From: a virus
Lineage: Duplodnaviria; Heunggongvirae; Uroviricota; Caudoviricetes
IMG/VR virus record: IMGVR_UViG_3300020576_001727
Coordinates: 103,062-167,061 of that record
Direction: 5' to 3' (one strand)
DNA: 64,000 bases
Part shown: piece after piece, positions 2,439 through 38,292 of the stretch
Layout of the letters: each line of letters begins with the position of its first letter
How positions within the stretch are numbered: position 1 is the first letter of the stretch
The notes under the pieces: generated by a model
The model's input: the letters and a program-made list of their open reading frames with translations, nothing else
Told to the model about the DNA's origin: nothing
The model's database searches: none
Translations under genes and position numbers: made by a program

Positions 2439-3245
2439 ATGGAACTTAAATTTGATTGGAATGAACTAAGAAAAAACAAAATATTCATTGCAACCCCGAT
2501 GTATGGGGGACAGTGCTTAGGGACTTACACAACAGCCGCTCTTGAATTGCAGGGATTGCTAATTTCGCATGGCGTCGAATGTCGATTTTCGTTCCTGTTT
2601 AATGAAAGCCTGATTCCTAGAGCAAGAAATTATCTGGTTGATGAATTCCTTCGATCTGGATATACTCATTTGCTTTTTATTGACGCCGATATTCGTTTCA
2701 ATCCAATTGATATCGTCGCCATGCTCCATATGGACAAGGATATTATCGGCGGTCCTTATCCCAAGAAAGCCTTGAAGTGGAGCAATGTCATCAAGGCTTT
2801 TGAAGTCGCCCAACAAAGAGGCGTTCAGCTTAAGCCGGAACAACTTGAATTGCTGGTTGGTGATTATGTGTTCAACCCGGTTCCGGGCACTACGCAATTC
2901 AATTCGTCCGAACTCCTAGAAGTTATGGAAATTGGAACCGGCTTCATGCTGGTTAAGAGGGAAGTGTTTGAGAAATTCAAGCAAGAATATCCTCACCTTT
3001 CCTATAAGCCCGATCATGCGGGACAGGCAAATTTCGATGGAAGCCGCTATATTCATGCATATTTCCATTGCGATATCGATCCTGTTTCGCATCGATATTT
3101 GAGTGAAGACTATTTCTTCTGTCAGGCTTGCCGTGAAATCGGAATTCAGATTTGGTATTGTCCTTGGATGAAGACAGGACATACAGGAACCTATGAATTC
3201 AAGGGGGATATTCAGGCTGTTGCCGCCTTGATAGGACAACTTTAA
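2439..3245 (+). CDS. putative GT-A fold glycosyltransferase (DxD = DAD)
   Basis: LFIDADIRFNP motif, size 268 aa; sits where T4 has a DNA glucosyltransferase locus near gene 45. Confidence 0.35.
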   Translation: MELKFDWNELRKNKIFIATPMYGGQCLGTYTTAALELQGLLISHGVECRFSFLFNESLIPRARNYLVDEFLRSGYTHLLFIDADIRFNPIDIVAMLHMDKDIIGGPYPKKALKWSNVIKAFEVAQQRGVQLKPEQLELLVGDYVFNPVPGTTQFNSSELLEVMEIGTGFMLVKREVFEKFKQEYPHLSYKPDHAGQANFDGSRYIHAYFHCDIDPVSHRYLSEDYFFCQACREIGIQIWYCPWMKTGHTGTYEFKGDIQAVAALIGQL

Positions 3246-3254
3246 GGATAATTT

Positions 3255-3911
3255 ATGCAAGTGATTGGTATTTGTGGTTTTATTGGAAGTGGAAAGAACA
3301 CAGTCGGAAAAATCCTGAAAGAGGCTGGTTATAAACCAGTCTCGTTTGCAGAGACGTTGAAAGACGCGACTTCTGTAATATTTGGTTGGGAAAGAGCCTT
3401 GTTGGAAGGCGATACCGACGAAAGCAGAAAATTCAGAGAGCAACCCGACGAATTCTGGTCGGGTGTTTTCGGATATGAATTCACGCCGCGATTTGCATTG
3501 CAAAAAATGGGAACCGAAGCCGGAAGAAACGTCTTTGGTGAACAGATTTGGGTTGAATCTGTTGTGAAAAAGATGTATGATATCATTAACTCGGAAGGCG
3601 AAACCAAATTTGTCATTACCGATGTTCGATTCGAAAATGAAATCAAGACGATAGAACGTCTTGGCGGAAAGATTTTCGAAGTTGCCCGGGGTGAATCTCC
3701 CGAATGGTATGATTGTGCATTACGGACCAAATCCGGCGCTGCACCAAAATACGAAAGAATGGAAGTTCTCTATCCGAAAATTCATATTTCGGAATGGGAC
3801 TGGATTACTGTCAAGAAATCCGGAATCATTTGGAATAACAAGGATTTGGAACATCTTCATAATGAAGTGAACAGATTAATATTAAATGAGGAAAATAATG
3901 CAACTATCTGA
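3255..3911 (+). CDS. deoxynucleoside monophosphate kinase (T4 gene 1-like)
   Basis: P-loop GFIGSGKNT; recalled similarity to T4 gp1 blocks (ALQKMGTEAG, ITDVRFENE). Confidence 0.5.
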   Translation: MQVIGICGFIGSGKNTVGKILKEAGYKPVSFAETLKDATSVIFGWERALLEGDTDESRKFREQPDEFWSGVFGYEFTPRFALQKMGTEAGRNVFGEQIWVESVVKKMYDIINSEGETKFVITDVRFENEIKTIERLGGKIFEVARGESPEWYDCALRTKSGAAPKYERMEVLYPKIHISEWDWITVKKSGIIWNNKDLEHLHNEVNRLILNEENNATI

Positions 3912-7262: not shown

Positions 7263-7752
7263 ATTTTTCAAACTGCATCCGAACGTGCAAATTCCAACGC
7301 TGGCAACGGCAGGAAGTGCATGTTTCGACTTGTCCTATTTTCCCCATGTTTCAAAGGTGAAGGGATTCAGCGCGACGAATGCGCCATTCGAGAGAGATAT
7401 CAACGCGGATGGCGGGATTGGTATCATGCAGGGGGAAAGATTGCTTCTGCCAACTGGACTGATCGCGGATATCCCATTGGGTTACTCAATGCGGGTTCAT
7501 CCGCGTTCGGGAACTTCCGTTAAATTGGGATTGACTTTGGCGAATGCGGAAGGTATCATTGACTCAGATTACGTCGAAGAAATTTTCTTGACGGCTCATA
7601 ACACTTCACAAAATCGAATTCTGATCAATCGGGGCGATCGTATTGCCCAAGGAGAATTGTATCAGGATTTGAAAAACATAATTCAGGAAACCTTGACTCG
7701 TCCTGTCCAGAAGACGACCCGCCAAGGTGGTTTTGGTTCTACTGGCGTATGA
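7240..7752 (+). CDS. dut: dUTPase
   Basis: conserved dUTPase motifs (RSG in HPRSGTSV, GIIDSDY, C-terminal GGFGSTG). Confidence 0.7.
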   Translation: MPVPPILRFFKLHPNVQIPTLATAGSACFDLSYFPHVSKVKGFSATNAPFERDINADGGIGIMQGERLLLPTGLIADIPLGYSMRVHPRSGTSVKLGLTLANAEGIIDSDYVEEIFLTAHNTSQNRILINRGDRIAQGELYQDLKNIIQETLTRPVQKTTRQGGFGSTGV

Positions 7753-8474
7753 TATATTCAACAGAAAGAGATAACCTAACGGTGTTCGCTCCCAAGCCAA
7801 AAGTCTTGGTAGTGACACCGACTGTTGATTCCGCCTATATCGTTTCGGATTCCGCCAAAAGTGTTCGTGAACAGAAGTCTGATTATGAATTCGAACACTT
7901 GATAGTTTATGATGGAATCAAGCCTAATGCGTATCGAGGATTGTTTCCTAATACCAAGACAATCGAGCTACCTTGGAACATTGGTGCCAATGGATTTTAT
8001 GGGCATAGAGTGTATGCCGCTATCGGTCATTTGGTCAATCATGATATTGTCTTTTTCCTAGACCAAGACAATTGGTATCAACCGGATCATGTCCAGACTT
8101 TGACCGATCTTTTGGTAAACAAGCCATATGCTCAATTCGGCTTCTCTTATCGGCAGATTTGGGATGGTTACGATTTTGTTTGTATCGATCAATTTGAGTC
8201 AATCGGTCAAGCGCCTCATTGGTTGGTCGATACGTCCAGTTTTGCTTTTCGCAGGACAACTCTTCTGCAATACGGTCATATCTGGCATAGCAAATGGGGT
8301 GCCGACAGACGATTTTTTCAGATAATGAGACAGAATAACATCGCCTATGCGACAACCGGGCTTCCGACTTTGAACTATCGTTTGAATGGAAATCCCAATT
8401 CCCCAACTAGAGAATTTTTCGAGCTAGGCAATCAACAGAATGGATGGAACAAAGATGGAAAACAACGGACTTAA
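7749..8474 (+). CDS. putative glycosyltransferase (GT-A like, DQD)
   Basis: FLDQDNWYQPDH motif; first gene of glycan island. Confidence 0.3.
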   Translation: MIYSTERDNLTVFAPKPKVLVVTPTVDSAYIVSDSAKSVREQKSDYEFEHLIVYDGIKPNAYRGLFPNTKTIELPWNIGANGFYGHRVYAAIGHLVNHDIVFFLDQDNWYQPDHVQTLTDLLVNKPYAQFGFSYRQIWDGYDFVCIDQFESIGQAPHWLVDTSSFAFRRTTLLQYGHIWHSKWGADRRFFQIMRQNNIAYATTGLPTLNYRLNGNPNSPTREFFELGNQQNGWNKDGKQRT

Positions 8475-9498
8475 TCTGGATAAACTTTTTGCCGAAGCCG
8501 GAAATTTATTACAACCATCGCGCGGACTTTTGGTCCCAAGAGAAATACCTAACAAAAATGTGCGTCTGTCTCACCAAGATATGATTATTGGTGCCATCAC
8601 CAATTATGAGCCGGAACATATTGAACAATGGATCGTCTCGATTGAGAAATCCAACTTTCCCGGCAAGCGCATTGCTTTGGTCTATAATGCAAAAAAGCCT
8701 GTCTTGGACAAGCTTCAGGAATATGGTTTCACCATTTGGGCATTGGCTAGAGCTACACCGGAAAAACAGGCGGAAGGTTGGGTTTATTATTACAAAGATT
8801 TGGACAAATTCAATGTCTGTCTTGAACGTTTCTGGCACACATGGATTTTCCTGAAAAAATTGAATCTGACTTCTGACAATGACGTTCGCGTCTATTTGAC
8901 AGACACAAAGGACGTTGTTTTCCAGCGTGATCCTTCCAATTATACCATGCCCGAAAATGTCAGTGTCATGCTGACTTCGGAAGGATTGACTTATGAGAAT
9001 GAGCCTTGGGGATGGAACAACATCACAGAGGCGTTTGGTAAGAACGTGGCAGAAACCATGCGCAATGTTGAAATCTCGAATGCGGGAGTCATTGTTGCTC
9101 GCCTGAACGATACGTTTCTCGATTTCCTTCAATCAGTCTATTTCTTTGGACGTTCAGCCAAGACAATCAACGGACATGTCCCGGGCGGGGGTGGTCCTGA
9201 TCAAGCGTCGGTAAATATCATCGCCAACATGAAAGTTTGGAAGCCTCATATTGCCTTTATCCAGACAACGGATGATTGGTGCTTGAATGCTGGCACAACA
9301 AACGACCCAAACAAGAATTTTGGTGACAAGTTTATTGGAACTCCCGGTATTCTGATTACTCCTAATGAAACGGATGATTTGTTTGTCTTCATTACAGGAG
9401 TCAAGAACATAGCTGGACAATTGTATCATGTTGTTCATCAATATGATAGAAATCCAGAGTGGAATGAGTATTTCAAAAAGGAATATAGATACAAATGA
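8440..9498 (+). CDS. putative nucleotide-diphospho-sugar transferase
   Basis: YLTDTKDVVFQRDP DxD-like segment; context. Confidence 0.3.
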   Translation: MDGTKMENNGLNLDKLFAEAGNLLQPSRGLLVPREIPNKNVRLSHQDMIIGAITNYEPEHIEQWIVSIEKSNFPGKRIALVYNAKKPVLDKLQEYGFTIWALARATPEKQAEGWVYYYKDLDKFNVCLERFWHTWIFLKKLNLTSDNDVRVYLTDTKDVVFQRDPSNYTMPENVSVMLTSEGLTYENEPWGWNNITEAFGKNVAETMRNVEISNAGVIVARLNDTFLDFLQSVYFFGRSAKTINGHVPGGGGPDQASVNIIANMKVWKPHIAFIQTTDDWCLNAGTTNDPNKNFGDKFIGTPGILITPNETDDLFVFITGVKNIAGQLYHVVHQYDRNPEWNEYFKKEYRYK

Positions 9499-10577
9499 AC
9501 ATTGATTTGATTTTGCCGTATGTGAAGCGTTATGCGAAAAAGAATGAAGAAAATTTGATTGCTTATGTAATGGAACATAAGGGTTCTATTCTGAAAAAAT
9601 TGGGAGAAACAGAACTCTTTTTGCTGGTTACAGGTCATGCCTTTCATGAAAACGAAGCCGATTTTGTGTTTGTTGATTATAACAGACTTCAAGATGTTGA
9701 AAAGCCTTGGTCTTTTGTTAAGTTAGGCGGCTGGATTGTCTTTGTCATGAACGAACATAATTGGTCTTTGATCAAGAAATTCCGTCAAGCCAATCGTATC
9801 AGTTCTTTTCCGAGAATCGCCGGGGAATTGGTGTTCTTTCAAAAGGAAGATTATGCAAATCGAAAGCCGGTTCCTCCTGCCAATGATAATTCTTTGTTAA
9901 GAATAGCCGATTTCTATGACGAGCCGGGAAGTATTCCGGTTCCGGACCCTGCCGGTTCTCATTTGAAGATCGATTATATTCAGAAATATGGTCAATTCGA
10001 TGCGTTTATCGAAACAGGAACATATCTTGGACAAACTGTTGAACTTATTCGTAATTCTGGACTTCCATTTGAGGAAATTTATTCGATTGAATTGGAACCA
10101 ACTCTTGCCAAGAATGCTCGCAAATATTTCGCGGGCGATACAAGAGTGTTTATTGTTGAAGGCGATTCGGTCGATATAGTGTCCAAAATTTGTAGTCAAA
10201 AATTGGACAACAAGAATGCCACGTTTTGGTTGGATGCACATGCTTCCGGTCCTTTGAAAGGTGGAAGAACCGGTCCAAATCCTCTTGTCGAGGAACTAGA
10301 AGCCATTCGACAAACTGGAAACCCAAATCATACAATCTTGATCGATGATCGCCGCTTGTTTGGTTCTGGCGAATGGGGATTTTTGAAAGAAGAGAAGGTA
10401 ATGGAAATGCTCAATAAAATCAACCCGAATTATACAATTTTGTATCTGGACGGGGAAGTGCCCGAAGATATTATCTGTGCAACAGTTGTCGAGAGAGAAA
10501 TTTCAGTCATTGAGCCTGTTTCAATTGTTGAAAATGCCCAAAATACTGAAATGATGGTCCTAGAGGATTTTGAATGA
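9495..10577 (+). CDS. SAM-dependent methyltransferase (FkbM/class I-like)
   Basis: FIETGTYLGQTVE...IELEP...IVEGDS motifs. Confidence 0.5.
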   Translation: MNIDLILPYVKRYAKKNEENLIAYVMEHKGSILKKLGETELFLLVTGHAFHENEADFVFVDYNRLQDVEKPWSFVKLGGWIVFVMNEHNWSLIKKFRQANRISSFPRIAGELVFFQKEDYANRKPVPPANDNSLLRIADFYDEPGSIPVPDPAGSHLKIDYIQKYGQFDAFIETGTYLGQTVELIRNSGLPFEEIYSIELEPTLAKNARKYFAGDTRVFIVEGDSVDIVSKICSQKLDNKNATFWLDAHASGPLKGGRTGPNPLVEELEAIRQTGNPNHTILIDDRRLFGSGEWGFLKEEKVMEMLNKINPNYTILYLDGEVPEDIICATVVEREISVIEPVSIVENAQNTEMMVLEDFE

Positions 10578-11500
10578 AAATAATCAAGCTTGGGTTTGTC
10601 GATACGTTTGATGGAACGGCTGAATTCTTTCTTGATACCTTGAAGGAATTATTCACTCTCGATATCAAGGATGAATTTTCTGGTGATATCTATGAGTTTG
10701 AACGCAATGATACAGACCCAAATATTCTCTTTTTTGGGGATGAAAACTTTGGCACTCGTAACTTGTCTTACGATCCGTCCAAAGTTCTGAAAATCTTCTA
10801 TACAGGAGAGAATCGACGTTTCTATAACTATCAGTGTCATTACGGAATCACTTTCGACCATATCGATGATGACCGGCATTTCCGTTTGCCTCTATATCTC
10901 CTGAATATGCATTACTTGAAAGAAAGACATAAAATCAGTTGGATGCCTGAATGGAAGCGCCGGGCTGATACTATGTCAACCAACAAGGATTATGATCGCG
11001 CATTCTGTGGTTATGTTCAAGCCAATCCCAACTGTGAAAAGCGTAATGATTTTTTCCAGAAATTGAATGCATACAAAAAGATCGACTCGGCTGGACCGCA
11101 TTTCAATAATACGGGCTTCATCCTTCCTAGAGGCGAAGATGGAATTCTGAAAAAAATGGATTTCCTTCGTGAAAAGAAATTCACTCTTGCATTCGAGAAT
11201 GGTTCATATCCCGGTTATGCAACAGAGAAGCTTTTGGAAGCGTGGTTGGCGGGAACGGTCCCGATCTATTGGGGTTCACCAACGGTCGCACTCGATTTCA
11301 ATCCGAAGGCTTTCATCAACTGGCATGATTTCTCGGATGATGGCAAGTTTATTGAATACATCAAGTTGGTCGATAGCGACAAATATATCTATAACGCAAT
11401 TCGCAATCAGCCTTTGTTTGTTGATTATGGTTATTATGATGGTTGGGAAAGTAGATTCTATAACTGGTTTAATAGAATAATCGAAAGACACATTCAATGA
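10574..11500 (+). CDS. GT10-family alpha-1,3/4-fucosyltransferase-like glycosyltransferase
   Basis: LAFENGSYPGYATEKLLEAWLAGTVPIYWG matches FucT FxFENSxxxxYVTEK...VPIYxG signature. Confidence 0.6.
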   Translation: MKIIKLGFVDTFDGTAEFFLDTLKELFTLDIKDEFSGDIYEFERNDTDPNILFFGDENFGTRNLSYDPSKVLKIFYTGENRRFYNYQCHYGITFDHIDDDRHFRLPLYLLNMHYLKERHKISWMPEWKRRADTMSTNKDYDRAFCGYVQANPNCEKRNDFFQKLNAYKKIDSAGPHFNNTGFILPRGEDGILKKMDFLREKKFTLAFENGSYPGYATEKLLEAWLAGTVPIYWGSPTVALDFNPKAFINWHDFSDDGKFIEYIKLVDSDKYIYNAIRNQPLFVDYGYYDGWESRFYNWFNRIIERHIQ

Positions 11501-12210
11501 GCTTCAAAGTAGCACTCTGCTTATCAGGACAACCAAGATCATACAAGAAAGGTTACGAGTATCACAAGCGTAACCTTTTAGATCATTTTGACGTTGATGT
11601 TTTCATGCATTCTTGGAATGACATTGGAGAAGAAACCAAAGCTGATCTAGTTAATCTTTATGGTTCGGATAATCGTAAAGTGGAGTCGTCTTTCGGACTT
11701 TTGGGGGAACATCTGCTTTCGGCAATAGATGAATTTTATTCCAGAATTCCAAATCCTCAATTCCCGGCACGTAACACATATCGTATGTTCTATTCCATTC
11801 GAGAATCCAAGCCCGATAGAATGGATAATTATGATGTAATCATTCGCTCCCGTTATGATTATGCCTTGAATGTCAAGCTTCCTTTGCAGGAAACGAAGGT
11901 TGGAAAGATTTATGTTCCTTCCGACAGAATGACTCCTGCCCATGATTTTTGTGCGGACATGTTTGCTTTCGGCACTCCCAAAGTAATGCGCTCGTATATG
12001 GATACGTTTTATAATCTCAAAAAACATTATGAAAACGGCGTGACCATGATCGGGGAAGACATGCTTGCCGCACAATTGAAACATCATGGTTTGATTGGTG
12101 AGAACATGGTTTACGTGAACATGGCCAATCCTTTTCCGCCCGGTAAATACAATGGAAATTGGCATTCTCTCATTCGAGAAGACTTTACAGATTGGAACAA
12201 ACTACGATGA
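11497..12210 (+). CDS. uncharacterized paralog family member 1 (VALxLxGQxR..DVDxxxHxW)
   Basis: paralogous to 14759..15472 and 15450..16229. Confidence 0.5.
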   Translation: MSFKVALCLSGQPRSYKKGYEYHKRNLLDHFDVDVFMHSWNDIGEETKADLVNLYGSDNRKVESSFGLLGEHLLSAIDEFYSRIPNPQFPARNTYRMFYSIRESKPDRMDNYDVIIRSRYDYALNVKLPLQETKVGKIYVPSDRMTPAHDFCADMFAFGTPKVMRSYMDTFYNLKKHYENGVTMIGEDMLAAQLKHHGLIGENMVYVNMANPFPPGKYNGNWHSLIREDFTDWNKLR

Positions 12211-12632
12211 TTTTCAAGGAATTGTCGGATTATCCGGGTTATTTTGCATGTTCTGATGGGTGGGTATATTCATCATGGAGGCAAACCAAAGATTCTTCCT
12301 ACATTGACTATTCCGTCAAACATAAACTTAAGCCGGGTTTAAGAGGAAAAAAGAAATATTATTTAATTTGCCCCAAAAATATAGATGGCAAACCGACAAC
12401 TAAGGATATTCATAGCTTAATTGCATCCGCATTCCTTGGTCCGAAACCAGAAGGCATGACCGTTTCACATAAGGACGGCAATTCTAAAAATAATAAACCT
12501 GAGAATTTGGTATATGAAACATATTCGGATAATCATAAGAGAAAAATAGAACATGGCACTTATGATGGTGGGACAAAAAATTCAAGGGCTATATTTTCTC
12601 TAGAAGATTTGCAAACAATGCTATCCTTGTGA
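12207..12632 (+). CDS. HNH homing endonuclease (NUMOD4-like N-term)
   Basis: HKDGNSKNNKPENL...SDNHKRK; DYPGYFACSDGWVYSS. Confidence 0.6.
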   Translation: MIFKELSDYPGYFACSDGWVYSSWRQTKDSSYIDYSVKHKLKPGLRGKKKYYLICPKNIDGKPTTKDIHSLIASAFLGPKPEGMTVSHKDGNSKNNKPENLVYETYSDNHKRKIEHGTYDGGTKNSRAIFSLEDLQTMLSL

Positions 12633-12717
12633 AACCAAAACTGGACACATAAGCAAATAGCAGACCATTTGAATACAGATTCACGAAACATTCAACGAAT
12701 TTTAGCAGGACAAAGAT

Positions 12718-14097
12718 ATGCAAGAGAAATACAATCGCTTAATAGTGTTTGATTTGGATGGTGTTTTGGTCGATACAAAAGACATTCATTATCATGCCTT
12801 GAATTATGCTCTTAATAAAGCTGGTGTAAAGACAATCGCTTATTCGGAACATGTTTCAACTTATGACGGACTTCCTACCAAGACCAAACTAGATATGCTA
12901 TCAGCAAAAGGTCTTGACCGTTCTTTGATTCCTCAAATTATCAAAGATAAAAATGAAATGACCAATCACAAACTCTATAATCTTCAAAAAGATGAAAAGC
13001 TTGTTGATTTGTTTGCTGCTTTGAAAATTCATGGCTATAAGATAGCGGTCGCCTCCAATGCGGTAAGAGATACTGTCAAGATTTGTATTGATCGCCTTGG
13101 TTTGAATCTCTTGGTTGATTTGTTTTTGTCCAATGAAGACGTTACCAACCAAAAGCCGCACCCCGAAATCTATTGGAAAGCCATGTCCAAGCTTAAGGCA
13201 TTGCCTGAAAATACAATCATTGTCGAGGATTCAGCCGTTGGTCGTGAAGGCGCGAACAAGACAGGAGCCTTGGTTTGGGGACTCGATCATCTTTACGAAT
13301 TGACTTTGGATAACATGCTGAATTATATAGACAAATTGGAAAAGACTCCAAACAAGACGGTTTGGAAAGACGAAAAGATGACCGTTCTCATTCCAATGGC
13401 TGGATTGGGGTCGCGCTTCGCCCAAGCCGGTTACACGTTCCCCAAGCCTTTGATCGAAGTCCGAAACAAGCCGATGATTCAGATTGTTGCCGAAAATCTA
13501 GGGATCGATGCCAAGTTCGTCTACATCGTTCAAAAGGAACATTACGAGAAATATAATCTGAAAAATGTCTTGAACCTGATCACTCCTAATTGTGAAATAG
13601 TTCAGACAGAAGGCTTGACAGAAGGCGCCGCTTGCACTACATTACTCGCTAAACATCTGATTGATAATGATCGTCGGTTGGTAATTGCCAACAGTGATCA
13701 GTTTGTCGAGTGGGATTCAGCCAAGACGCTTTATTCCTTGATTGAGTCTAAAGTGGACGGTGGAATTTTGACGTTCAAGTCAACGCATCCGAAATGGTCA
13801 TTTGCCAAGGTCGATGAATCTGGTTTTGTTACCGAAGTTGCTGAAAAGCAGCCAATCTCGGATAATGCAACCGTTGGTATCTATTATTGGAAGCATGGTT
13901 CGGATTACGTCAAGTATGCAGAACGAATGATCACAAAGAATATTCGCACCAATAATGAGTTCTATGTGTGTCCGGTCTTCAATCAGGCTATCGAGGATGG
14001 GAAGAAGATCGTTACCAGACAGATTGAAGCTATGTGGGGAATTGGCACTCCCGAAGATTTGAATTATTTCTTGAACAATTACAAAGGTGTAGTATGA
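12718..14097 (+). CDS. bifunctional HAD-family phosphatase / sugar-phosphate nucleotidyltransferase
   Basis: N-term LIVFDLDGVLVDT (HAD motif I); C-term LIPMAGLGSRF nucleotidyltransferase signature. Confidence 0.55.
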   Translation: MQEKYNRLIVFDLDGVLVDTKDIHYHALNYALNKAGVKTIAYSEHVSTYDGLPTKTKLDMLSAKGLDRSLIPQIIKDKNEMTNHKLYNLQKDEKLVDLFAALKIHGYKIAVASNAVRDTVKICIDRLGLNLLVDLFLSNEDVTNQKPHPEIYWKAMSKLKALPENTIIVEDSAVGREGANKTGALVWGLDHLYELTLDNMLNYIDKLEKTPNKTVWKDEKMTVLIPMAGLGSRFAQAGYTFPKPLIEVRNKPMIQIVAENLGIDAKFVYIVQKEHYEKYNLKNVLNLITPNCEIVQTEGLTEGAACTTLLAKHLIDNDRRLVIANSDQFVEWDSAKTLYSLIESKVDGGILTFKSTHPKWSFAKVDESGFVTEVAEKQPISDNATVGIYYWKHGSDYVKYAERMITKNIRTNNEFYVCPVFNQAIEDGKKIVTRQIEAMWGIGTPEDLNYFLNNYKGVV

Positions 14098-14762
14098 AAT
14101 TAGGTATTGTCAGTGACTTGCATCTTGAATTTCGAGATGCAAACTTTTTCTATGATATTTCCGACAAGCTTCATGAGAGTGAAGCCGATGTAATCATTTT
14201 GGCTGGTGATATTCATAGACAGAAGATAATGAGAGATTTGTTTCTGGAGTCAATTCAGAAGCCTTATTTCTTCGTGCATGGAAATCATGATTATTACAAC
14301 AAATTCGCCTTTGTGGAAGACGATTTCCATGAAGAAATCTTCGACGGCGTGAAGATAGCGGGAGCTTGTCTTTGGACTCATTTTGGGGATGATCCGATTG
14401 TGGAGATACATGCTCGCGAAGAAATCAACGATTTTCGAGTTATTCCGAACTTCACCACGTTCAAATGTAAGGAAATTTTCTCACAACAGTTTAAGAAGTT
14501 GATGCAGTCGGATGCTGATATCATTGTCACACATTTTCCACCGACTTATGCGACTGAAAATCCTTTATACAAGAACAGTCCTTTGAATCCATATTTCATG
14601 AACAATCTTGACGATCATGTTTATGATAAGAAGCTTTGGATTCATGGTCATACGCATACCAGACGCGAAGCTATGGTCGGGAATTGTCGAGTGATAACTA
14701 ATCAGTTGGGTTATCCCGGTGAAATCAAAGAACCATACGAAATCAAGATAGTGGAAGTGTGA
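14094..14762 (+). CDS. calcineurin-like metallophosphoesterase
   Basis: GIVSDLH, LAGDIH, GNHD motifs. Confidence 0.55.
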   Translation: MKLGIVSDLHLEFRDANFFYDISDKLHESEADVIILAGDIHRQKIMRDLFLESIQKPYFFVHGNHDYYNKFAFVEDDFHEEIFDGVKIAGACLWTHFGDDPIVEIHAREEINDFRVIPNFTTFKCKEIFSQQFKKLMQSDADIIVTHFPPTYATENPLYKNSPLNPYFMNNLDDHVYDKKLWIHGHTHTRREAMVGNCRVITNQLGYPGEIKEPYEIKIVEV

Positions 14763-15472
14763 TGAAAGTAGCTCTAATCCTTTATGGTCAGCCTCGTTTT
14801 ATTCAGAGGGATGATGTCTATAAATCCCATATCGATAATATCGTTTATAAGTATGATGATGTAGACATTTACGCGCATATGTGGTGGCATCCTTTTGATC
14901 ATTTTGGAACAACTTCAAGTTGGGCAAAGGATCATGGAACACAAGATTTTATGAGTTGCCCAATTGATGCACCAGCACTTATAGCGACAAAATATCATCC
15001 AAAACGTATGTTGATAATGCCTCCACAACGGTTTGAACCGGAACCTCAAACTAAACAGATTCTCGAATCTCGTTTTACCGGAAACAAGTATTTTTCATGG
15101 GAAAATTGGAGCAACATCGCCTCCCAACTAACCGCATTACAAGAAGCCTCACTTTTGGTTGAACAAGCGAACCAATACGATTGGTTGGTGATGGCTAGAT
15201 ATGATGCTCTCCTAGAGAATTTTCCTGACTTAACCACGTTGGAACCGGGCTTCTATTGTCCCCAAGGCGGTCATTTTAATGACTTGATTCACGTCTATAA
15301 ACCAGTCTATAATGAGTTTTTCAACTATCTGGCATCTGCTGCGAACGATCCTTGGATTCTTAACAAGATCGATTTGCCGATTCCCGAATTGTTCAAATAC
15401 TGGCACTACCAATCCTGTTTCATGCAGGAACCAAAGAAGATAGGAATGTATGCACATGTCATCCGAAACTAA
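14759..15472 (+). CDS. uncharacterized paralog family member 2
   Basis: MKVALILYGQPRF...DVDIYAHMWW. Confidence 0.5.
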   Translation: MMKVALILYGQPRFIQRDDVYKSHIDNIVYKYDDVDIYAHMWWHPFDHFGTTSSWAKDHGTQDFMSCPIDAPALIATKYHPKRMLIMPPQRFEPEPQTKQILESRFTGNKYFSWENWSNIASQLTALQEASLLVEQANQYDWLVMARYDALLENFPDLTTLEPGFYCPQGGHFNDLIHVYKPVYNEFFNYLASAANDPWILNKIDLPIPELFKYWHYQSCFMQEPKKIGMYAHVIRN

Positions 15473-16229
15473 GAAGGCTAAAGTTGCGCTCGTTCTGACA
15501 GGTCATATGCGTTGTTGGGAACAAGTCTATCCGAATATCAAGAAAAATTTCATTGATCCGTATGATACGGACGTTTTCATTTCGACTTGGGATGACGAAG
15601 GCTATTGGACTTCCCCGGAAAATGATCCGAAGGGAGTAGGCGTCAATACGGCTTCTCCCAAGCTGAATATCGAAAGAGTCAAGGAAATCTATAATCCGAT
15701 AAAATTTTATATTGACTCGAATGAAGAATATCGAGAAACTTATGATCATCAAGCCAAAATATTAGAACCATATTGTAAGCAAATTCGACCGCTGAATATT
15801 CTTTGTCAGTTTGACCGTATCTATAATGGATATGCCGACATGCTATCGACGGGAATACAATATGATTGGGTTGTTCGAATTCGCCCGGATTTGATAATTA
15901 ATTCTGGACTACCCAATCTGAATACAACGCCTAAAGATTTTGTTTTCACATTACATCATCCTAACCACGAAGGTCTTGGAACGGGTGATATGATGCTGAT
16001 TTCTTCCCTTAATTTTGCTTATTATTTTGGAATTGGTCATATATCAGTTCCGAGTGATGCAAACACAAAGAATCTTCTTGTTAATGGTCGTTTCTGCCCA
16101 CATGTCTATACCAAGCATGTAATCAAGAAATTGTGTGAAGAATTGCAACACAAGCACGTTGAATTGAGAGTGGATAAGTATCTTATGCATACCCCGCGCG
16201 GACAATATCAGGATGTTCCCAATGGCTAA
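15450..16229 (+). CDS. uncharacterized paralog family member 3
   Basis: KVALVLTGHMRCW...DTDVFISTWDDEG. Confidence 0.5.
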   Translation: MHMSSETKKAKVALVLTGHMRCWEQVYPNIKKNFIDPYDTDVFISTWDDEGYWTSPENDPKGVGVNTASPKLNIERVKEIYNPIKFYIDSNEEYRETYDHQAKILEPYCKQIRPLNILCQFDRIYNGYADMLSTGIQYDWVVRIRPDLIINSGLPNLNTTPKDFVFTLHHPNHEGLGTGDMMLISSLNFAYYFGIGHISVPSDANTKNLLVNGRFCPHVYTKHVIKKLCEELQHKHVELRVDKYLMHTPRGQYQDVPNG

Positions 16230-16740
16230 AATCATTTCACATAGAGGCAATCTATCCGGACCTAAAACCGCTCCAAGTGGAGAGAATAGCGGTCACGCCA
16301 TCAAACATGCGATAGCTGAAGGATTTGATGTCGAAGTCGATATTCAGGATTTTGACGGATATAATTTCATTACCGGACATGACGAAGCCGATCATGTTGT
16401 CGATTCGCAAAAACTTGATATAAATCGGGTTTGGTTTCATGCTAAAAGCATATACATCTTTGAAAAAATGTTGAACCATACCACCAAATTCAATGTCTTT
16501 TATCATACCAATGAAGACGTTGTTCTAACTTCCAAGGGAAATCTTTGGTTTTTCCCCAAGGCTATTATTCCATTCCATTCGAATAATGTCATGGTATTGC
16601 CCGAAGCCTTTTGGTTCAGGAAAAGGGAAAGTGGTTCTTACTGGAATATGTCATCTGACTTGAAATTGATGATGCAACAGCTTCATGGGGTTTGCACAGA
16701 TTATCCCTATGATTTTTATGAATTTTTTGGAGGAAAATAA
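16213..16740 (+). CDS. glycerophosphodiester phosphodiesterase (GDPD)-like
   Basis: ISHRGNLSGP...ENSGHAIKHAIAEGFDVEVDI matches GP-PDE N-terminal motifs. Confidence 0.45.
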   Translation: MFPMAKIISHRGNLSGPKTAPSGENSGHAIKHAIAEGFDVEVDIQDFDGYNFITGHDEADHVVDSQKLDINRVWFHAKSIYIFEKMLNHTTKFNVFYHTNEDVVLTSKGNLWFFPKAIIPFHSNNVMVLPEAFWFRKRESGSYWNMSSDLKLMMQQLHGVCTDYPYDFYEFFGGK

Positions 16741-17940
16741 GTGAAAACCGTATCTATCATTGGTGCTTGTGGGCATGTTGGTCTTCCTCTAACAGTGCTT
16801 GTCGCGGAAGCCGATTATAATACCATCGGCATTGATATAAACCGGGAAGCCGTTGATTTGGCAAACAATGGAATGGCTACGTTCAAGGAAAAGAATTTAA
16901 ACGAGCGCCTTGCCAACATCAAACAAAATGGCAACCTGCATTTTGTCATTGCAGACACCATTCAAGCCGATGCAGCCTTGATCGAATCGGACGTGATTGT
17001 CATCATTATCGGAACTCCAATCGATCACGAAAACAATCCGAGAATGGAGCCTCTTTTCGATCTTGCCGAAATGCTCAATCGAGTCGATCTTTCCAACAAG
17101 GTCATCATTTTACGTTCAACAGTATCGCCGGGAACAACTGCCGTCTTTGCCGAAAAGCTGAATCAGACTCCCAAGGCAATCGCTTTCTGTCCGGAACGTG
17201 TCCAGCAAGGCAATTCGTTAGTCGAACTCGAAAAATTTCCTCAAATCGTCGGAATGCATTCGGGCAATCGAGAAGCCGTCCATAATTTTTTCTGGAAAGT
17301 TCTTCCCGATATAGAACTTATCGAAGCTACCGATTTGGAAGCCGAAATTGGCAAGCTGTTTACCAACATGGCGCGTTATATCGAATTTGCCGTGGCGAAT
17401 GAATTTCAGATGATTGCCGCCTCGTTTGGTGTTGATGGAACCGACATTCTTGAAAAATTCAAGAAATCCTATCCTCGCATGAATCTCGCCAAACCCGGTC
17501 CAAATGTTGGCGGTCCTTGCCTGTTCAAGGATGGCAAGTTCTTGTTGAAAAACGTGAGTGGAATGACCATGACCGAAATGGCATTTCGAGTGAATGAGGG
17601 AATGCCAGCCTATATCGTCCAGCAAATGCAGCCGTTGCCGGGTGACAGAGTTTTGATCCTCGGAGCCGCTTTCAAGGCGGAAAGTGATGATATCCGCAAT
17701 TCCTTGTCATTCAAGCTGAAAAAACTCTTGATTAATGAAGGGGTTGACGTTACAATTTACGATCCTCATGTGAAGGGGTATGAAAAACTTCCTAGTTTGG
17801 ATGGTTTTGAATATTTCGTGGTAATGACGCCTCATTCACAGTTCGCGGAATTGCTATATCAAATCGATGATGAACGGAACGCCAATTCCACAATCGTTGA
17901 TTTCTGGAAAATAAATCCAGATAAAGGAATAATGTATTAA
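16741..17940 (+). CDS. NDP-sugar (UDP-glucose/GDP-mannose) 6-dehydrogenase, GTG start
   Basis: Rossmann VSIIGACGHVGLPL; central and C-terminal dehydrogenase domains (GGPCL catalytic Cys region). Confidence 0.6.
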   Translation: MKTVSIIGACGHVGLPLTVLVAEADYNTIGIDINREAVDLANNGMATFKEKNLNERLANIKQNGNLHFVIADTIQADAALIESDVIVIIIGTPIDHENNPRMEPLFDLAEMLNRVDLSNKVIILRSTVSPGTTAVFAEKLNQTPKAIAFCPERVQQGNSLVELEKFPQIVGMHSGNREAVHNFFWKVLPDIELIEATDLEAEIGKLFTNMARYIEFAVANEFQMIAASFGVDGTDILEKFKKSYPRMNLAKPGPNVGGPCLFKDGKFLLKNVSGMTMTEMAFRVNEGMPAYIVQQMQPLPGDRVLILGAAFKAESDDIRNSLSFKLKKLLINEGVDVTIYDPHVKGYEKLPSLDGFEYFVVMTPHSQFAELLYQIDDERNANSTIVDFWKINPDKGIMY

Positions 17941-17951
17941 AGGAAAACAAT

Positions 17952-18932
17952 ATGACAATTTTAGTAACTGGTTCAGCCGGATCATTGGGTTCGGAAATCG
18001 TCAAGCAACTGAAAGACAATCAAACAGATTTCAATTCTGTCTATGGAATAGATATTAATGAAGGCGAACATGTTGATTTCAAAATTGATTTGGTTGATAA
18101 TGTTTCTGAATTAGAACGGGTTTTTGGTGATATACAACCCGATATCATAGTGCATTGCGCAGCGAATATCTATGGAATCGGTGGTTTTAATGCCTTGCCA
18201 GCAACCATCCTTGGCAAAGACGTTGCCATGCTCTATAACACTTTGAATTTGTTCAAGAATTTACCGAAAAAAACCAAGTTTGTTTATATTTCTTCTTCAA
18301 TGGTGTATGAGCAAGTTCGGGGTGATCCTGAACTTTCCGAACATCTGGTTGACGATTCGATTGCTCCTAAGACAGAATATGGAATGTCCAAGTTTGTTGG
18401 GGAGAGATTGGTTAAAGCCTTTGGCAAGGAATATGGCATCGAATATACAATCTGGCGTCCTTTCAATATCATTACTCCATATGAGAAGCCCAAGGAAGGA
18501 AGAAACAGACAGGGATACTCCCATGTCTTTGCGGATTTCTTTGAAAATATTCTAATCAACAAACTGAATCCATTGCCTATCATTGGTTCTGGTAGTCAAG
18601 TTCGATGCTTTACGTGGTATGAGGAAGTCGCTGATTGTATCGTCTCAAATCTGTGGAACAAGAAGACCGTCAATGAAGTTTACAACATTGGCAACAATGA
18701 ACCTGTCAACATGATGCAGTTGGCGCATATGATCGTGGACGAATCCAAGGAAAGAGGATATTTGTCCAAGGATTTCCGATTGGAATTCAAATCGGTCAAG
18801 GACTATCCCAATGATGTCATGGTAAGAGTTCCTAACGTGTTCAAGGCTCTTGGTGATCTTGGTTTCTCTGCTTCGATCAAGACCAAGGAATCGATCAAGC
18901 GTTGTATGAATGAATGGGAAAAACTCCTATGA
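17952..18932 (+). CDS. NAD-dependent epimerase/dehydratase (SDR)
   Basis: ILVTGSAGSLGS, YGMSK (YxxxK). Confidence 0.6.
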   Translation: MTILVTGSAGSLGSEIVKQLKDNQTDFNSVYGIDINEGEHVDFKIDLVDNVSELERVFGDIQPDIIVHCAANIYGIGGFNALPATILGKDVAMLYNTLNLFKNLPKKTKFVYISSSMVYEQVRGDPELSEHLVDDSIAPKTEYGMSKFVGERLVKAFGKEYGIEYTIWRPFNIITPYEKPKEGRNRQGYSHVFADFFENILINKLNPLPIIGSGSQVRCFTWYEEVADCIVSNLWNKKTVNEVYNIGNNEPVNMMQLAHMIVDESKERGYLSKDFRLEFKSVKDYPNDVMVRVPNVFKALGDLGFSASIKTKESIKRCMNEWEKLL

Positions 18933-19888
18933 CCAAGAAAAACTTCCTGATTATTGGCGGCTATGGTTATGTCGGCACTCATTTGCGAAAGTATCTGACT
19001 CAAAAATATGATTTGAGTGAAGAATTTGGTTCGGCTCGAAAAAACAACGGCAAAATCTATGATATAGATATTTTGTCGAGTGATTATCAGTCTCAATTGA
19101 AAGAATCTCTTTTGCATGAATATGATGCGGTGTTCTATCTTGCTGCAAATTCTATGGTTTCGGACGGCATTCTTTCTCCATTTTCAACACTTGAAAACAA
19201 TGTCGGTCAATTGATGTATTATCTCAAAATGTTGAAAGGCAAAGCCAAGACTTGGGTTTTTGCTTCATCTTCTTCGGTTTATGCATCCGACTCAAAGCTT
19301 GTCAAGGATGGTGATGGATATTCTGAAAATAGTCCAACCAAAATCTATGCAATGTCAGCCGCCGCCAATGCCAATGACAGCATTTATGCGGTTTCAAAGA
19401 TTTTGGGAGAGAGAATTTTACAAGCCGCGAATCATGAATATGGTTTGAAGTCGATTTCTCTTCGATTTGGTAATATCGCCGGTAATGAAATTCAATCATA
19501 TGTCTGGAAAAATCATCTAATTCCCAAGCTTCTTTTATCAGAAGATCGAAAGATTACTTTTTATGGCAATCCTAATTCCTTTTCAAGGGATTATGTTCAT
19601 ATCAATGATGTTTGTATTGCCTTGGATTTGGCTTGGCAATATTCTTTGACGACTGGATTGGGTTATGAAGTGTTCAACATTGCTTCTGGACAAGACACAA
19701 CTAACGCGGCAATTCTGAAAAAAGTCGAAACCTATTTGGATAAAAAATTTGATACCGTCATAGGAGACGAACGAATTGGGGAAGAATACAACATCAAGCT
19801 TGACATTACCAAGGCAAAACAGTATCTTGGTTGGGAGCCTAAGAAAAATTTGAATGATATAATTCAGTCATATGTAGGAGTGGTTTGA
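18914..19888 (+). CDS. NAD-dependent epimerase/dehydratase (SDR)
   Basis: LIIGGYGYVGTH, YAVSK. Confidence 0.6.
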   Translation: MGKTPMTKKNFLIIGGYGYVGTHLRKYLTQKYDLSEEFGSARKNNGKIYDIDILSSDYQSQLKESLLHEYDAVFYLAANSMVSDGILSPFSTLENNVGQLMYYLKMLKGKAKTWVFASSSSVYASDSKLVKDGDGYSENSPTKIYAMSAAANANDSIYAVSKILGERILQAANHEYGLKSISLRFGNIAGNEIQSYVWKNHLIPKLLLSEDRKITFYGNPNSFSRDYVHINDVCIALDLAWQYSLTTGLGYEVFNIASGQDTTNAAILKKVETYLDKKFDTVIGDERIGEEYNIKLDITKAKQYLGWEPKKNLNDIIQSYVGVV

Positions 19889-20331
19889 TGTTTGATTCTG
19901 ATTATGTGAAGAAGTGGGGCAAAGGTCCGTTTGTCACTGTTGACGTGGTTCTCTATGACACTCTCAATCGATTTTTGTTGATTCAGAGACAGGATGGCCA
20001 ATGGGCAAATCCCGGTGGGTTTGTCGAAGCCGAAGAAGAGTTGATCGACGCGGCGAAGCGCGAAATGCTTGAAGAAACAGGCGTTGATTTGGACGCGATT
20101 CATGCACGAATGCCTTATGCAGTTCATCCGTTTTCGTCTGTCAATCGTGATCCTCGCGCCAGAATCATAACGTTTGCTCATTATTTCATCGTCTTGGATT
20201 TGAATAAGATAGATTTCAAGGCGGGCGACGATGCAAAAGATGCGCGAATTTTCCGATTGGATGAAATCAAGGAAATGGATTTGTATGGCGATCATAAAAA
20301 AATTATCGCAATGGTCGATTATCTGGATTGA
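19885..20331 (+). CDS. Nudix hydrolase
   Basis: Nudix box GGFVEAEEELIDAAKREMLEETG. Confidence 0.65.
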   Translation: MMFDSDYVKKWGKGPFVTVDVVLYDTLNRFLLIQRQDGQWANPGGFVEAEEELIDAAKREMLEETGVDLDAIHARMPYAVHPFSSVNRDPRARIITFAHYFIVLDLNKIDFKAGDDAKDARIFRLDEIKEMDLYGDHKKIIAMVDYLD

Positions 20332-20780: not shown

Positions 20781-20791
20781 CAAAAATCGAT

Positions 20792-20836
20792 AATGGGGAT
20801 TGACATTTGTTTTAATCCCCATTATTTTATTTTTGA
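20792..20836 (+). terminator. rho-independent terminator (10-bp stem aatggggatt/aatccccatt + T-run) with TTGACA in loop
   Basis: read directly. Confidence 0.55.
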
Positions 20837-30754: not shown

Positions 30755-31357
30755 TTGCTATACACGATCTATAAAATTACGAATAATATTAACGGTAAAA
30801 TTTATATTGGTAAACATCAAACTAAAAATTTAGATGATGGGTATTTTGGTTCTGGTAAAAATCTAAAACGTGCGATATCGAAATACGGTATAGAGAACTT
30901 TAACAAAGAAATTCTTTATGTATTCGACAACGAGTCGGATATGAATGTTAAGGAACGTGAATTAGTAACCGAAGAATTTTGTAAACGTCTAGATACCTAC
31001 AATATTTGTGAAGGTGGTAAAGGCGGATTTGGTTATATAAATTCGATTGTATCAAATGAAGATAAATCTAGGTTTGGAAAATTTGGCGCGCAAAAATATG
31101 TCGAACGTTTAAAATCAGACAAAAATTTTGCAGATTTGAGAATTTCTTCTTTCAAAGAAAGTATTCAAAAGTTAAGAGACTCTGGTTGGAAATCGTCCGA
31201 ATCTCATATGAAGTTGATGACTGAAAAAGCAGCCGAAAAAACACGTAACATGATATGGATTACAGACGGTGTTGCTAATAAAAAAATACTAAAAACTAAT
31301 AAAATTCCTCCAAATTTTTATAGAGGAAGAATTGTAAATAAACGTCAATCGTCATGA
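30755..31357 (+). CDS. GIY-YIG homing endonuclease (TTG start)
   Basis: [22 protein letters not shown]...YFGSG...NxE. Confidence 0.65.
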
Positions 31358-31361
31358 AAGG

Positions 31362-31577
31362 ATGACTATGCGTAACGATTTGATTATAATTGGACTTGCA
31401 TTCTTTGCGGTGTTTGTATTTCCAGTTCCCGCTATGATTTCGGCGGCAAGCACTGTAATGGTTTTGCTAGGAATTGGTATCGTCCTTCTAGGAGGATATG
31501 CGGCTTGGACTTCTGGAATGAAGATTTTCAAGAAGTTTCTGAACAATGATGTTGATAACAATGGAGAAAATGGATGA
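31362..31577 (+). CDS. small two-TM membrane protein
   Basis: two hydrophobic helices; overlaps start of SPFH gene. Confidence 0.45.
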   Translation: MTMRNDLIIIGLAFFAVFVFPVPAMISAASTVMVLLGIGIVLLGGYAAWTSGMKIFKKFLNNDVDNNGENG

Positions 31578-38142: not shown

Positions 38143-38292
38143 AATTTAGAAAGAATTTGTAATGAACGAAATCAATTTGACAGGTAATTGGCAAAAAACC
38201 CCTTGGTATTTCACTCTGTTTGGCTTTTCTGCCAAACGTCGCAAAATTCATCACTCCAAAAATCCAGAACTTTATGTATGGGAATATCAGTA

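Follow-up and report, generated by a model that had tools for sequence, protein, structure and literature searches.

Three diverged paralogs in a syntenic phage gene cassette are predicted glycosyltransferases of the GT-A fold

Three paralogous genes, here called A, B, and C, lie within a glycan-related gene cassette that is conserved in marine phages, here seen in a 64,000-nucleotide stretch of tailed-phage DNA (the window). They are anciently diverged members of one very large and virus-rich superfamily (PHROG 13607, overlapping DUF7796), none of whose members has been characterized so far. The evidence on the trio comprises homology, fold, a conserved signature, gene order, and the solubility of the proteins of the cassette. 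We consider it probable that A, B, and C are nucleotide-sugar-dependent glycosyltransferases, each making one linkage of a phage-specified oligosaccharide whose donors are supplied in cis. This function is predicted from the fold, and the enzyme class is an ordinary one rather than a new type of system.

A syntenic cassette with one member of each subfamily

The first-pass annotation had placed the three open reading frames among sugar-activating enzymes. They are indeed found on the + strand with the coordinates and lengths it gave (237, 237, and 259 aa), interleaved with a HAD-NTP-transferase fusion, a UDP-glucose/GDP-mannose-type dehydrogenase, and two SDR epimerase/dehydratases. The features are:

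7749..8474 (+), GT2-like glycosyltransferase, first cassette gene (Glycos_transf_2 1.4e-4, just under the curated cut-off)
8440..9498 (+), conserved ORF of 352 aa with D-T-K-D and G-P-D-Q motifs
9495..10577 (+), conserved ORF of 360 aa, orthologs in T4-like cassettes only
10574..11500 (+), GT10-family alpha-1,3-fucosyltransferase-like (Glyco_transf_10 1.3e-17, FucT_N 4e-13)
11497..12210 (+), paralog A, predicted GT-A-fold transferase of 237 aa, abundant A subfamily
12159..12632 (+), HNH homing endonuclease (Pfam HNH_3 1e-11), between A and the HAD-NTP-transferase
12718..14097 (+), HAD (beta-phosphoglucomutase/phosphatase-like)-sugar-1-phosphate nucleotidyltransferase fusion, the HAD-NTP-transferase (HAD_2 3e-32, NTP_transferase 2e-11)
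14034..14762 (+), calcineurin-like metallophosphoesterase (Metallophos 6.5e-16, phrog_1649), probable start ATG 14094
14759..15472 (+), paralog B, 237 aa, B subfamily, probable start ATG 14762
15450..16229 (+), paralog C, 259 aa, C subfamily, first motif present as the variant G-H-M-R-C-W
16213..16740 (+), short GDPD-like phosphodiesterase, 175 aa (profile of 9 orthologs)
16741..17940 (+), UDP-glucose/GDP-mannose dehydrogenase family (UDPG_MGDP_dh N-terminal, central, and C-terminal domains), predicted to make an NDP-uronic acid
17952-18932 and 18914-19888 (+), two SDR nucleotide-sugar epimerase/dehydratases (Epimerase 2e-38 and 2e-27; GDP_Man_Dehyd 3e-24 and 7e-22)
19885..20331 (+), NUDIX hydrolase (Pfam NUDIX 4e-19), directly after the SDR genes
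20789..20826 (+), terminator-like hairpin, a 15-bp stem then a T run, the strongest downstream of the island in a consensus scan

The genes are tightly packed. The GT10-like gene lies directly upstream of A, which it overlaps by 4 nt, and the last 23 nt of B overlap the start of C. B adjoins the stop codon of the metallophosphoesterase gene, and its JGI gene call begins at ATG 14762, one codon past GTG 14759, giving 236 aa (P0001). A search with the subfamily HMMs revealed no fourth family member in the 64-kb window. The hairpin likely ends the co-directional transcription unit. The NUDIX hydrolase is possibly part of the cassette unit; in L005, its ortholog (E 9e-32) lies ~280 bp 3' of the second SDR gene, after a 105-aa ORF. 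The HNH gene is a mobile passenger outside the pathway, and its slot is occupied by a NUMOD3 ORF in L004 and by small ORFs in L001 and L003.

The full cassette, in which A, B, and C each occur exactly once, was found in the window and in L001, L003, L004, L005, and L013. Its order is GT2-like gene, 352-aa ORF, 360-aa ORF, GT10, A, HAD-NTP-transferase, metallophosphoesterase, B, C, GDPD-like gene, dehydrogenase, SDR, and SDR. It is syntenic in all six of these contigs, and its site after regA is fixed. We found no membrane, flippase, or polymerase component in the cassette, all of whose proteins are soluble. The GT2-like gene is kept in all cassette loci. The 352-aa ORF has orthologs in 10 loci, non-T4 phages included, and no Pfam, PHROG, or PDB match, and a GT-like role for it is only a guess; profile and database searches with the 360-aa ORF gave no matches either. 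The gene most constantly linked to family members is the HAD-NTP-transferase, presumed to make an NDP-sugar donor. It matches 4evw in the PDB (1e-17), along with PGP and beta-PGM structures, and its orthologs (E 1e-160 to 1e-198) adjoin family members in L001-L006, L012, L013, and L015. The metallophosphoesterase immediately precedes B in the window and L005 and lies a short distance upstream of it in the remaining full cassettes; L012 lacks both genes. The GDPD-like gene is directly downstream of C in every T4-like cassette, adjoins the HAD-NTP-transferase in phage B23, and is close by in S-CAM9. The profile of its orthologs matches solved GDPDs (3i10 1.2e-5, 2pz0 1.8e-3, 7e0v 9e-3) across the H-R / E-N / E-x-D / H-D motifs.

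Relatives of the trio occur in comparable company elsewhere. In the cultured cyanophages B23 (GT11 ... GT25) and S-CAM9, they are found within glycosyltransferase clusters. In a giant-virus MAG, a relative directly follows the major capsid gene and has GT47-, GT77-, GT11/2/92-, GT4-, and GT8/32-like neighbors. Clusters of glycosyltransferases with UDP-glucose dehydrogenase and epimerases have been described in hypervariable regions of marine T4-like phages (PMC7029224; PMC12801897).

Three subfamilies of one superfamily

The N-terminal signature reported in the first pass is present in all three proteins, as KVAL-x-L-x-G-[QH]-x-R ... D-x-D-[VI]-[FY]-x-x-x-W, and their similarity is beyond chance and extends past the N-terminus. 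Pairwise BLASTP gave 1e-5 over 40 aa for A-B, 2e-9 over 47 aa for A-C, and 2e-3 over 175 aa for B-C. The profile of PHROG 13607 (unknown function) matched A at 1.2e-21, B at 1.8e-26 (residues 2-233), and C at 2.2e-17. Independent HMMs recovered the other subfamilies at 1e-8 to 1e-14, and hhalign joined A-B (98.8%, E 7e-17, 140 columns), A-C (99.5%, E 3e-22, 174 columns), and B-C (98.1%, E 1e-13, 169 columns). Identity is 43-49% inside subfamilies versus 18-21% across them.

At 90% identity, the A subfamily forms >480 clusters, many already annotated as PF25072/DUF7796, and relatives of B in cultured cyanophages are 34-36% identical to it. With the PF25072 model, A scored 14.0 bits (E 0.023) and C 17.4 bits (E 0.0022), below the curated gathering threshold of 27 bits, and B was not matched; 35 of the 78 aligned members matched at E ≤0.01. 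Structural matches (BFVD) also included a Sylvanvirus 'DUF7796 domain-containing protein'. Some relatives are fusions, either of a SAM methyltransferase with two tandem family domains or of a family domain with an FkbM methyltransferase. Because this architecture is typical of glycan-building enzymes, we counted it in favor of glycosyltransferases.

Fold and conserved residues

The first-pass annotation had suggested uncharacterized transferases giving three successive decorations. A GT-A fold was observed, which supports that suggestion in part; transferase chemistry and the non-redundancy of the three enzymes are what we infer. The proteins form a single Rossmann-like alpha/beta/alpha domain with the GT-A strand order, and their best structural neighbors are ordinary glycosyltransferases. 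At the sequence level, named glycosyltransferase families (GT2, GT6, GT8, GT62/Anp1, Stealth, LicD) gave no profile match. In Pfam at E up to 10, only DUF7796 was found for A and C, and only a chance-level Homeodomain (E 0.048) for B. A profile search of PDB sequences with the family returned nothing, and hhalign against the island's GT2-like, 352-aa, and Anp1-like families gave probabilities <1%.

Seven columns are invariant among 78 sequences of the three subfamilies: A6, G11, R14, W40, R119, D121, and D154. The loop after beta4, as assigned from secondary structure, lacks a canonical DxD and carries R119-x-D121 instead. Among 146 superfamily domains, the first DxD position is R in 143, K in 1, L in 1, and D in 0, and the last Asp of the motif is retained in 144/145. 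Genuine GT-As with variant DxD motifs are known (GT6, GT14, GT27, WrtF), so that the missing DxD weakens membership in the GT-A class but does not rule it out. Strand 156-159 and helix 161-179 come after D154. The A subfamily conserves H223, to which a residue in B corresponds (M-Y-A-H-V-I-R) but none aligns in C. Positions 10, 12, 15, 90, 122, and 151, which flank the invariant residues, are fixed within subfamilies and differ between them.

From these features, we propose that the Rossmann-like half would bind the nucleotide, with the G11-x-x-R14 loop coming after beta1 and W40 at the end of beta2. R119-x-D121 at the end of beta4 would stand in for the DxD. R14 and R119 could then bind the diphosphate leaving group, like the basic pairs of metal-independent GT-A enzymes, with D154 as candidate catalytic base; metal independence of the family is a prediction. 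The subfamily-specific positions may set donor and acceptor specificity. The three enzymes would work alongside the GT2-like and GT10 fucosyltransferase-like enzymes, and in cis the HAD-NTP-transferase fusion, the dehydrogenase, and both SDR enzymes would supply the donors. The acceptor could be a virion protein, a host envelope precursor, or DNA.

Alternative functions

The trio might instead be sugar-1-phosphate or alditol-phosphate transferases, which would use a GT-A scaffold and an NDP-activated donor, move X-phosphate, and release NMP, while the neighboring phosphodiesterases trim or 'uncover' phosphodiester-linked decorations or feed precursors. We regard this as unlikely, albeit the least so of the alternatives. 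GT-A families can hold sugar-phosphate transferases, e.g., yeast Mnn6/Ktr6 in GT15. Two invariant arginines, R14 and R119, suit phosphate binding, the GDPD-like gene always adjoins C or the HAD-NTP-transferase, and the metallophosphoesterase keeps to B and is lost with it. Yet the metallophosphoesterase is missing from many loci that carry family members, and both phosphoesterases could recycle NDP by-products or have unrelated roles. In L007-L009, an A-type member lies beside an APH/choline-kinase-like kinase and an NTP_transferase, which we take to resemble LicA/LicC-type phospho-alcohol activation and counted for phosphate transfer, although such a pair is no less typical of sugar-1-kinase/pyrophosphorylase salvage. 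The weak BFVD matches include a 'Stealth protein' (hexose-1-phosphate transferase family; E 3.6e-5, TM 0.40); however, the top structural neighbors are ordinary glycosyltransferases, and Pfam Stealth and LicD gave no signal even at E up to 10. It is more improbable still that the trio are NDP-sugar/CDP-alcohol pyrophosphorylases of the 'nucleotide-diphospho-sugar transferase' superfold, activating three sugar phosphates. Of the G-x-G-T-R ... P-K/S-K signature, G11 and R14 are present, with no conserved downstream lysine (K24 is conserved in 91% of A, 21% of B, and 67% of C). Pfam NTP_transferase, NTP_transf_3, IspD, and CTP_transf did not match the trio at E up to 10. Unlike GlmU, RmlA, IspD, and PntC, the trio has no conserved catalytic lysine and helix alpha1 follows the loop directly; moreover, the cassette already contains a canonical sugar-1-phosphate nucleotidyltransferase.

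Glycosylation of the phage's own DNA, with the trio adding a mono-, di-, and trisaccharide to a modified base in the manner of T-even, RB69-type, and metavirome phages, seems to us slightly less credible again. On 5hmC, phage GT-A and GT-B enzymes are known to assemble mono- to trisaccharides, and they are often encoded near polymerase/clamp genes, epimerases, and APH kinases (bioRxiv 10.1101/2023.12.21.572611). The cassette is situated in the replication module, where it immediately follows the clamp loader, RegA, and a dCTP-deaminase/dUTPase-like gene, with a gp1-like dNMP kinase nearby (3255-3911) and no late-promoter motif found in the island. However, these DNA GT-As are TarP/JGT-like, with R...DDD...EDY/F (Pyle et al. 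2023; bioRxiv 10.1101/2023.12.21.572611) rather than the R-x-D of the trio. They need a neighboring C5-methyltransferase with a TET-like dioxygenase (5mYOX) or a ThyS-type hydroxymethylase (bioRxiv 10.1101/2023.12.21.572611), and no ThyS/hydroxymethylase homolog was found in the 64-kb window of the 170-kb genome or at any cassette locus, nor did a Pfam scan of the three paralogs and 40 other window ORFs show one. Five to seven transferases with uronic-acid/fucose-type chemistry go far beyond the needs of any known DNA glycan, and the relatives that adjoin a giant-virus capsid gene or lie in 'LPS-like' clusters of cyanophages also argue against a DNA acceptor. Finally, with the canonical DxD missing, at least one of the trio might lack catalytic activity and act as a scaffold or chaperone for the others, in the way that COSMC assists T-synthase; pseudo-glycosyltransferases of this type exist (PMC7185993). 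This we consider highly implausible: R14, R119, D121, D154, and W40 are invariant in the three subfamilies and across the superfamily, and invariance of the same polar residues is the pattern of a conserved active site and not of decay. Besides, A, B, and C are all intact in six diverged phage contigs.

Broader reading and comparison with known systems

If the trio are glycosyltransferases, a function would be assigned to a family of >11,000 sequence clusters, now 'hypothetical' in cultured cyanophages and giant viruses, and R-x-D with a second arginine would be a new active-site solution in the GT-A repertoire. A bolder and rather doubtful extension is that the DUF7796-like superfamily is a virus-specialized, arginine-assisted, metal-independent GT-A branch, shared by tailed phages and giant viruses, that assembles a virus-encoded glycan on an acceptor in the cytoplasm, for instance virion proteins, independently of host membrane machinery. 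The HAD-NTP-transferase fusion and the GDPD-like phosphodiesterase would then form the donor pathway, and the trio would lay down three consecutive residues, possibly phosphodiester-containing. Phages would then have their own equivalent of the autonomous capsid glycosylation of chloroviruses and mimiviruses. Fully soluble, conserved, and with single A, B, and C genes, the cassette offers a defined test case for whether marine-phage 'LPS-like' clusters glycosylate the host surface, the virion, or DNA; since the core module also occurs in the cultured phages S-CAM9, B23, and S-PRM1, this question is directly testable.

The structurally closest GT-A is yeast Mnn9 (GT62, PDB 3ZF8), with identity of only 10-11% and no sequence or profile match. 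In contrast to Mnn9, the family has R-x-D in place of D-x-D and consists of soluble proteins of ~240 aa without a membrane anchor. Bacteroides ovatus GT6a (4CJ8) and the Rhizobium fucosyltransferase WrtF (9OMH) are metal-independent GT-As with a non-canonical DxD, but the arginines of the family lie elsewhere (after beta1 and at the first DxD position) and there is no sequence similarity. PF25072 and PHROG 13607 are both of 'function unknown', and the Pfam model misses the B and C subfamilies. Among known gene clusters, the closest are the 'LPS-like' islands of marine T4-like cyano- and pelagimyophages and giant-virus capsid-glycosylation clusters. Relatives of the trio are found in clusters of these kinds in S-CAM9, B23, and the giant-virus MAG, and published descriptions of 'LPS-like' islands list these genes as hypothetical. 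Unlike those hypervariable islands, the cassette described here is syntenic and fixed in position.

Sequence relationships and diversity of the three paralogs

The three ORFs A, B, and C form a conserved trio in a syntenic phage glycan cassette. Their family is GT-A-like; it is catalogued but uncharacterised, and its catalytic motif is non-canonical. The first-pass annotation had proposed a three-member paralogous family here, and we recovered the ORFs, all on the + strand, at the coordinates (A, 11497..12210; B, 14759..15472; C, 15450..16229) and with the lengths (about 237 to 259 aa) that it gave; the N-terminal signature it described is found in all three. The pairwise comparison it suggested gave weak BLASTP matches, confined to the first 40-47 residues for A-B and A-C (E 1e-5 and 2e-9) and spanning 175 residues for B-C (E 2e-3). 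BLASTP alone thus comes close to an absence of similarity beyond the N-terminus, and it is profile methods that decide for relatedness. A, B, and C all match PHROG 13607 (E 1e-17 to 1e-26; residues 2-233 in B), and the ortholog HMM of each subfamily picks up the other two paralogs (E 1e-8 to 1e-14). Profile-profile alignments of the pairs reach 98.1-99.5% probability over 140-174 columns; all of them cover the Y-D...R-x-D motif, and those of A-C and B-C extend to the second invariant Asp. A recent local triplication was rejected, because A, B, and C have separate sets of orthologs (40-79% identity), whereas the paralogs share around 20%.

Median identity is 43-49% within subfamilies and 18-21% between them. 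There are more than 480 A-type clusters at 90% identity, which makes this type abundant; the B-type and C-type are rare (14 and 18 clusters). An alignment of 78 sequences drawn from the three subfamilies has seven invariant columns (A6, G11, R14, W40, R119, D121, D154) and four nearly invariant ones (D34, Y55, Y112, D113); these residues are kept in at least 96% of the 146 domains of the top 138 representatives. Positions 10, 12, 15, 90, 122, and 151, which flank the common invariant residues, are fixed in each subfamily and differ between them, a pattern that would be expected of one chemistry acting on different substrates.

An exhaustive profile search identified 11,254 cluster representatives at E <=1e-3 and 5,342 at E <=1e-10. 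No source gives a functional name to any member, the source names of cluster members being all "hypothetical" or absent. A profile search of PDB sequences returned chance matches only, with no sequence-level relative; Pfam gave no family above threshold (DUF7796 below it, for A and C only) and NCBIfam gave no match. Among predicted viral structures, the best matches (17-25% identity, E as low as 3e-16) are to "uncharacterized" proteins. Those from giant viruses belong to Catovirus, Tupanvirus, Fadolivirus, and chloroviruses and include a Sylvanvirus "DUF7796 domain-containing protein"; the cyanophage ones are from S-PRM1 and S-SKS1, three of them from S-SKS1. In a literature search, we found no paper mentioning DUF7796 and none pairing S-SKS1 with a glycosyltransferase. 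Some relatives are fused to SAM methyltransferases, in part with tandem family domains. Using hhalign with single sequences and with ortholog profiles, we detected no relation of the family to the island's GT2-like and 352-aa proteins or to the Anp1-like protein, which leaves the equivalence between R-x-D (R119-x-D121) and DxD without a sequence anchor.

The phage and its glycan cassette

The window derives from a 170-kb metagenomic contig and carries a T4-like phage with the sliding clamp gp45, the clamp loader gp44/62, RegA, DNA polymerase gp43, UvsX, and a gp41-type helicase. Its polymerase is around 44% identical to those of the closest cultured relatives, the cyanomyoviruses, and megablast found no deposited phage that matches the region at the DNA level. 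The T4 late-promoter motif is absent from the island and not enriched across the window.

Features of the window and of two other loci (window positions unless a locus is named)
2439-3245: weak Anp1/Mnn9-family (GT62) ORF (E 5e-5, phrog_1574), outside the island, adjoining the gp1-like kinase
3255-3911: T4 gp1-like deoxynucleotide monophosphate kinase
12159-12632: HNH homing-endonuclease gene, inserted between A and the HAD-NTP-transferase
19885-20331: NUDIX hydrolase, directly after the two SDR genes
30755-31357 and 36292-36981: two ORFs for SegE-like GIY-YIG homing endonucleases, in the stretch that separates the island from the DNA polymerase gene
31574-32446: SPFH/Band-7 protein
38188-38700: weak PTH2-like ORF
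46211-46696: weak MotA/ExbB-like ORF
56368-57006: second calcineurin-like metallophosphoesterase
14746-15186 of L005 (a locus with the full cassette): NUDIX hydrolase, after two SDR genes and a small 105-aa ORF
8321-8776 of L015 (Synechococcus phage S-CAM9, NC_031922): GDPD-like ORF (HMM E 1e-53), longer than the annotated "hypothetical protein" gp064 (8492-8779)

The gp1-like kinase is a possible hint of non-canonical nucleotides.

Gene order, mapped with local HMMs, is RegA, dUTPase-like, GT2-like, 352-aa ORF, 360-aa ORF, GT10, A, HAD-NTP-transferase, metallophosphoesterase, B, C, 175-aa ORF, dehydrogenase, SDR, SDR. This full order, with a single A, B, and C, occurs in the window and in the loci L001, L003, L004, L005, and L013. 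The same cassette is found in L012 (CAZDGL010000001.1, 151 kb) minus B and the metallophosphoesterase, which are absent together. L012 is labelled as a "Candidatus Saccharibacteria" MAG but carries T4-like genes (RegA, dUTPase-like, and the glycan cassette); it is a T4-like phage contig, probably mis-binned, and was the one locus returned when genome contigs were searched with the subfamily A profile alone.

The genes of the window are tightly packed, with overlaps of 4 to 35 nt. No island protein has transmembrane-like segments, and no flippase, polymerase, or priming transferase was found in the island. Where the window has the HNH gene, a NUMOD3-domain ORF is found in L004 and small ORFs in L001 and L003; this gap looks like a homing-endonuclease hot spot within an otherwise syntenic cassette. 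The SDR-SDR-NUDIX order is similar to that of gmd-fcl-gmm in GDP-fucose clusters, which would fit the fucosyltransferase-like GT10 gene upstream.

A module recurring in other phages

When the 175-aa, 352-aa, and 360-aa ORFs and the metallophosphoesterase were compared as single sequences with Pfam and the PDB, the results were uninformative. A profile of nine orthologs of the 175-aa ORF matches solved glycerophosphodiester phosphodiesterases (3i10, E 1.2e-5, and others) across the H-R / E-N / E-x-D / H-D motifs, and it is because of this profile only that we call the ORF GDPD-like. The HAD-NTP-transferase, in which a beta-phosphoglucomutase/phosphatase-like HAD is fused to a sugar-1-phosphate nucleotidyltransferase domain, is highly conserved (ortholog E 1e-160 to 1e-198). 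Four phage backgrounds have this fusion together with the GDPD-like gene and between one and three members of the family. They are the T4-like cassette, the unrelated phage L002, and the cultured cyanophages B23 and S-CAM9. The order in B23 is GT11, A-like gp349, fusion gp352, GDPD-like gp353, A-like gp355 ... GT25, and in S-CAM9 it is epimerase, GT, GT, gp068, fusion gp067, B-like gp066, HAD, GDPD-like, B-like gp062 ... GT, GT. The deposited start of gp064 in S-CAM9 may lie too far downstream.

The most abundant A-type clade (L007, L008, L009) has another setting, with GT2, a homolog of the 352-aa ORF, Methyltransf_24, A, an APH-like kinase, and NTP_transferase. These are PolB/UvsX/DnaB/DruA phage contigs of a different lineage, where the compact module lies between replication and structural genes. 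Finally, in a giant-virus MAG of 409 kb, the gene for the major capsid protein is immediately followed by the start of a dense glycosyltransferase cluster, and one of the genes in this cluster is B-like (36% identity).

Predicted chemistry

Glycosyl transfer is the best supported prediction for A, B, and C, since their top structural neighbours are glycosyltransferases, their genes lie among glycosyltransferases and adjoin sugar-activation enzymes, the fusion architectures are of the glycan-building type, and several specialised paralogs occur per genome. That they are nucleotidyltransferases is a real alternative: the two classes have a common superfold, nucleotidyltransferases score almost as high as glycosyltransferases in the structural comparison of C, and Thanatos TH1_063 is a precedent for a wrong fold-based glycosyltransferase assignment. 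However, the family is unrelated to TH1_063 and to TH1_060, the experimentally studied fold-alikes, and lacks the conserved lysine of the nucleotidyltransferase G-x-G-T-R...P-K signature; Pfam gives no signal for this class in A, B, or C, and a canonical NTP-transferase always adjoins the family members. Transfer of phospho-sugars ranks second to glycosyl transfer, and would be in line with the two invariant arginines and with the tight, unexplained linkage to two phosphoesterases. The earlier description of the trio as uncharacterised transferases is essentially right at the fold level. The sulfotransferase option finds no support in fold or context and was rejected.

If the predicted glycosyl transfer is correct, the enzyme class itself is ordinary; what is notable is the size of the family, its virus-centred distribution, and its odd active site. 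The presence of the same module in cultured phages makes the prediction testable.

Possible acceptors

Phage DNA is the least supported acceptor. The window does encode a gp1-like dNMP kinase, but the documented DNA GT-As have a motif different from that of this family and require a nearby hydroxymethylase or TET-like enzyme (bioRxiv 10.1101/2023.12.21.572611); a dCMP-hydroxymethylase probe had no match in the 64-kb window, about a third of the genome, or in the cassette loci. Islands of this kind in marine T4-like phages have been published, without evidence, as modifiers of the host surface (O-antigen) (PMC7029224, PMC12801897). Compared with the host surface, virion or other cytoplasmic acceptors are at least as plausible, because the inventory is all soluble and the giant-virus cluster adjoins the capsid gene.
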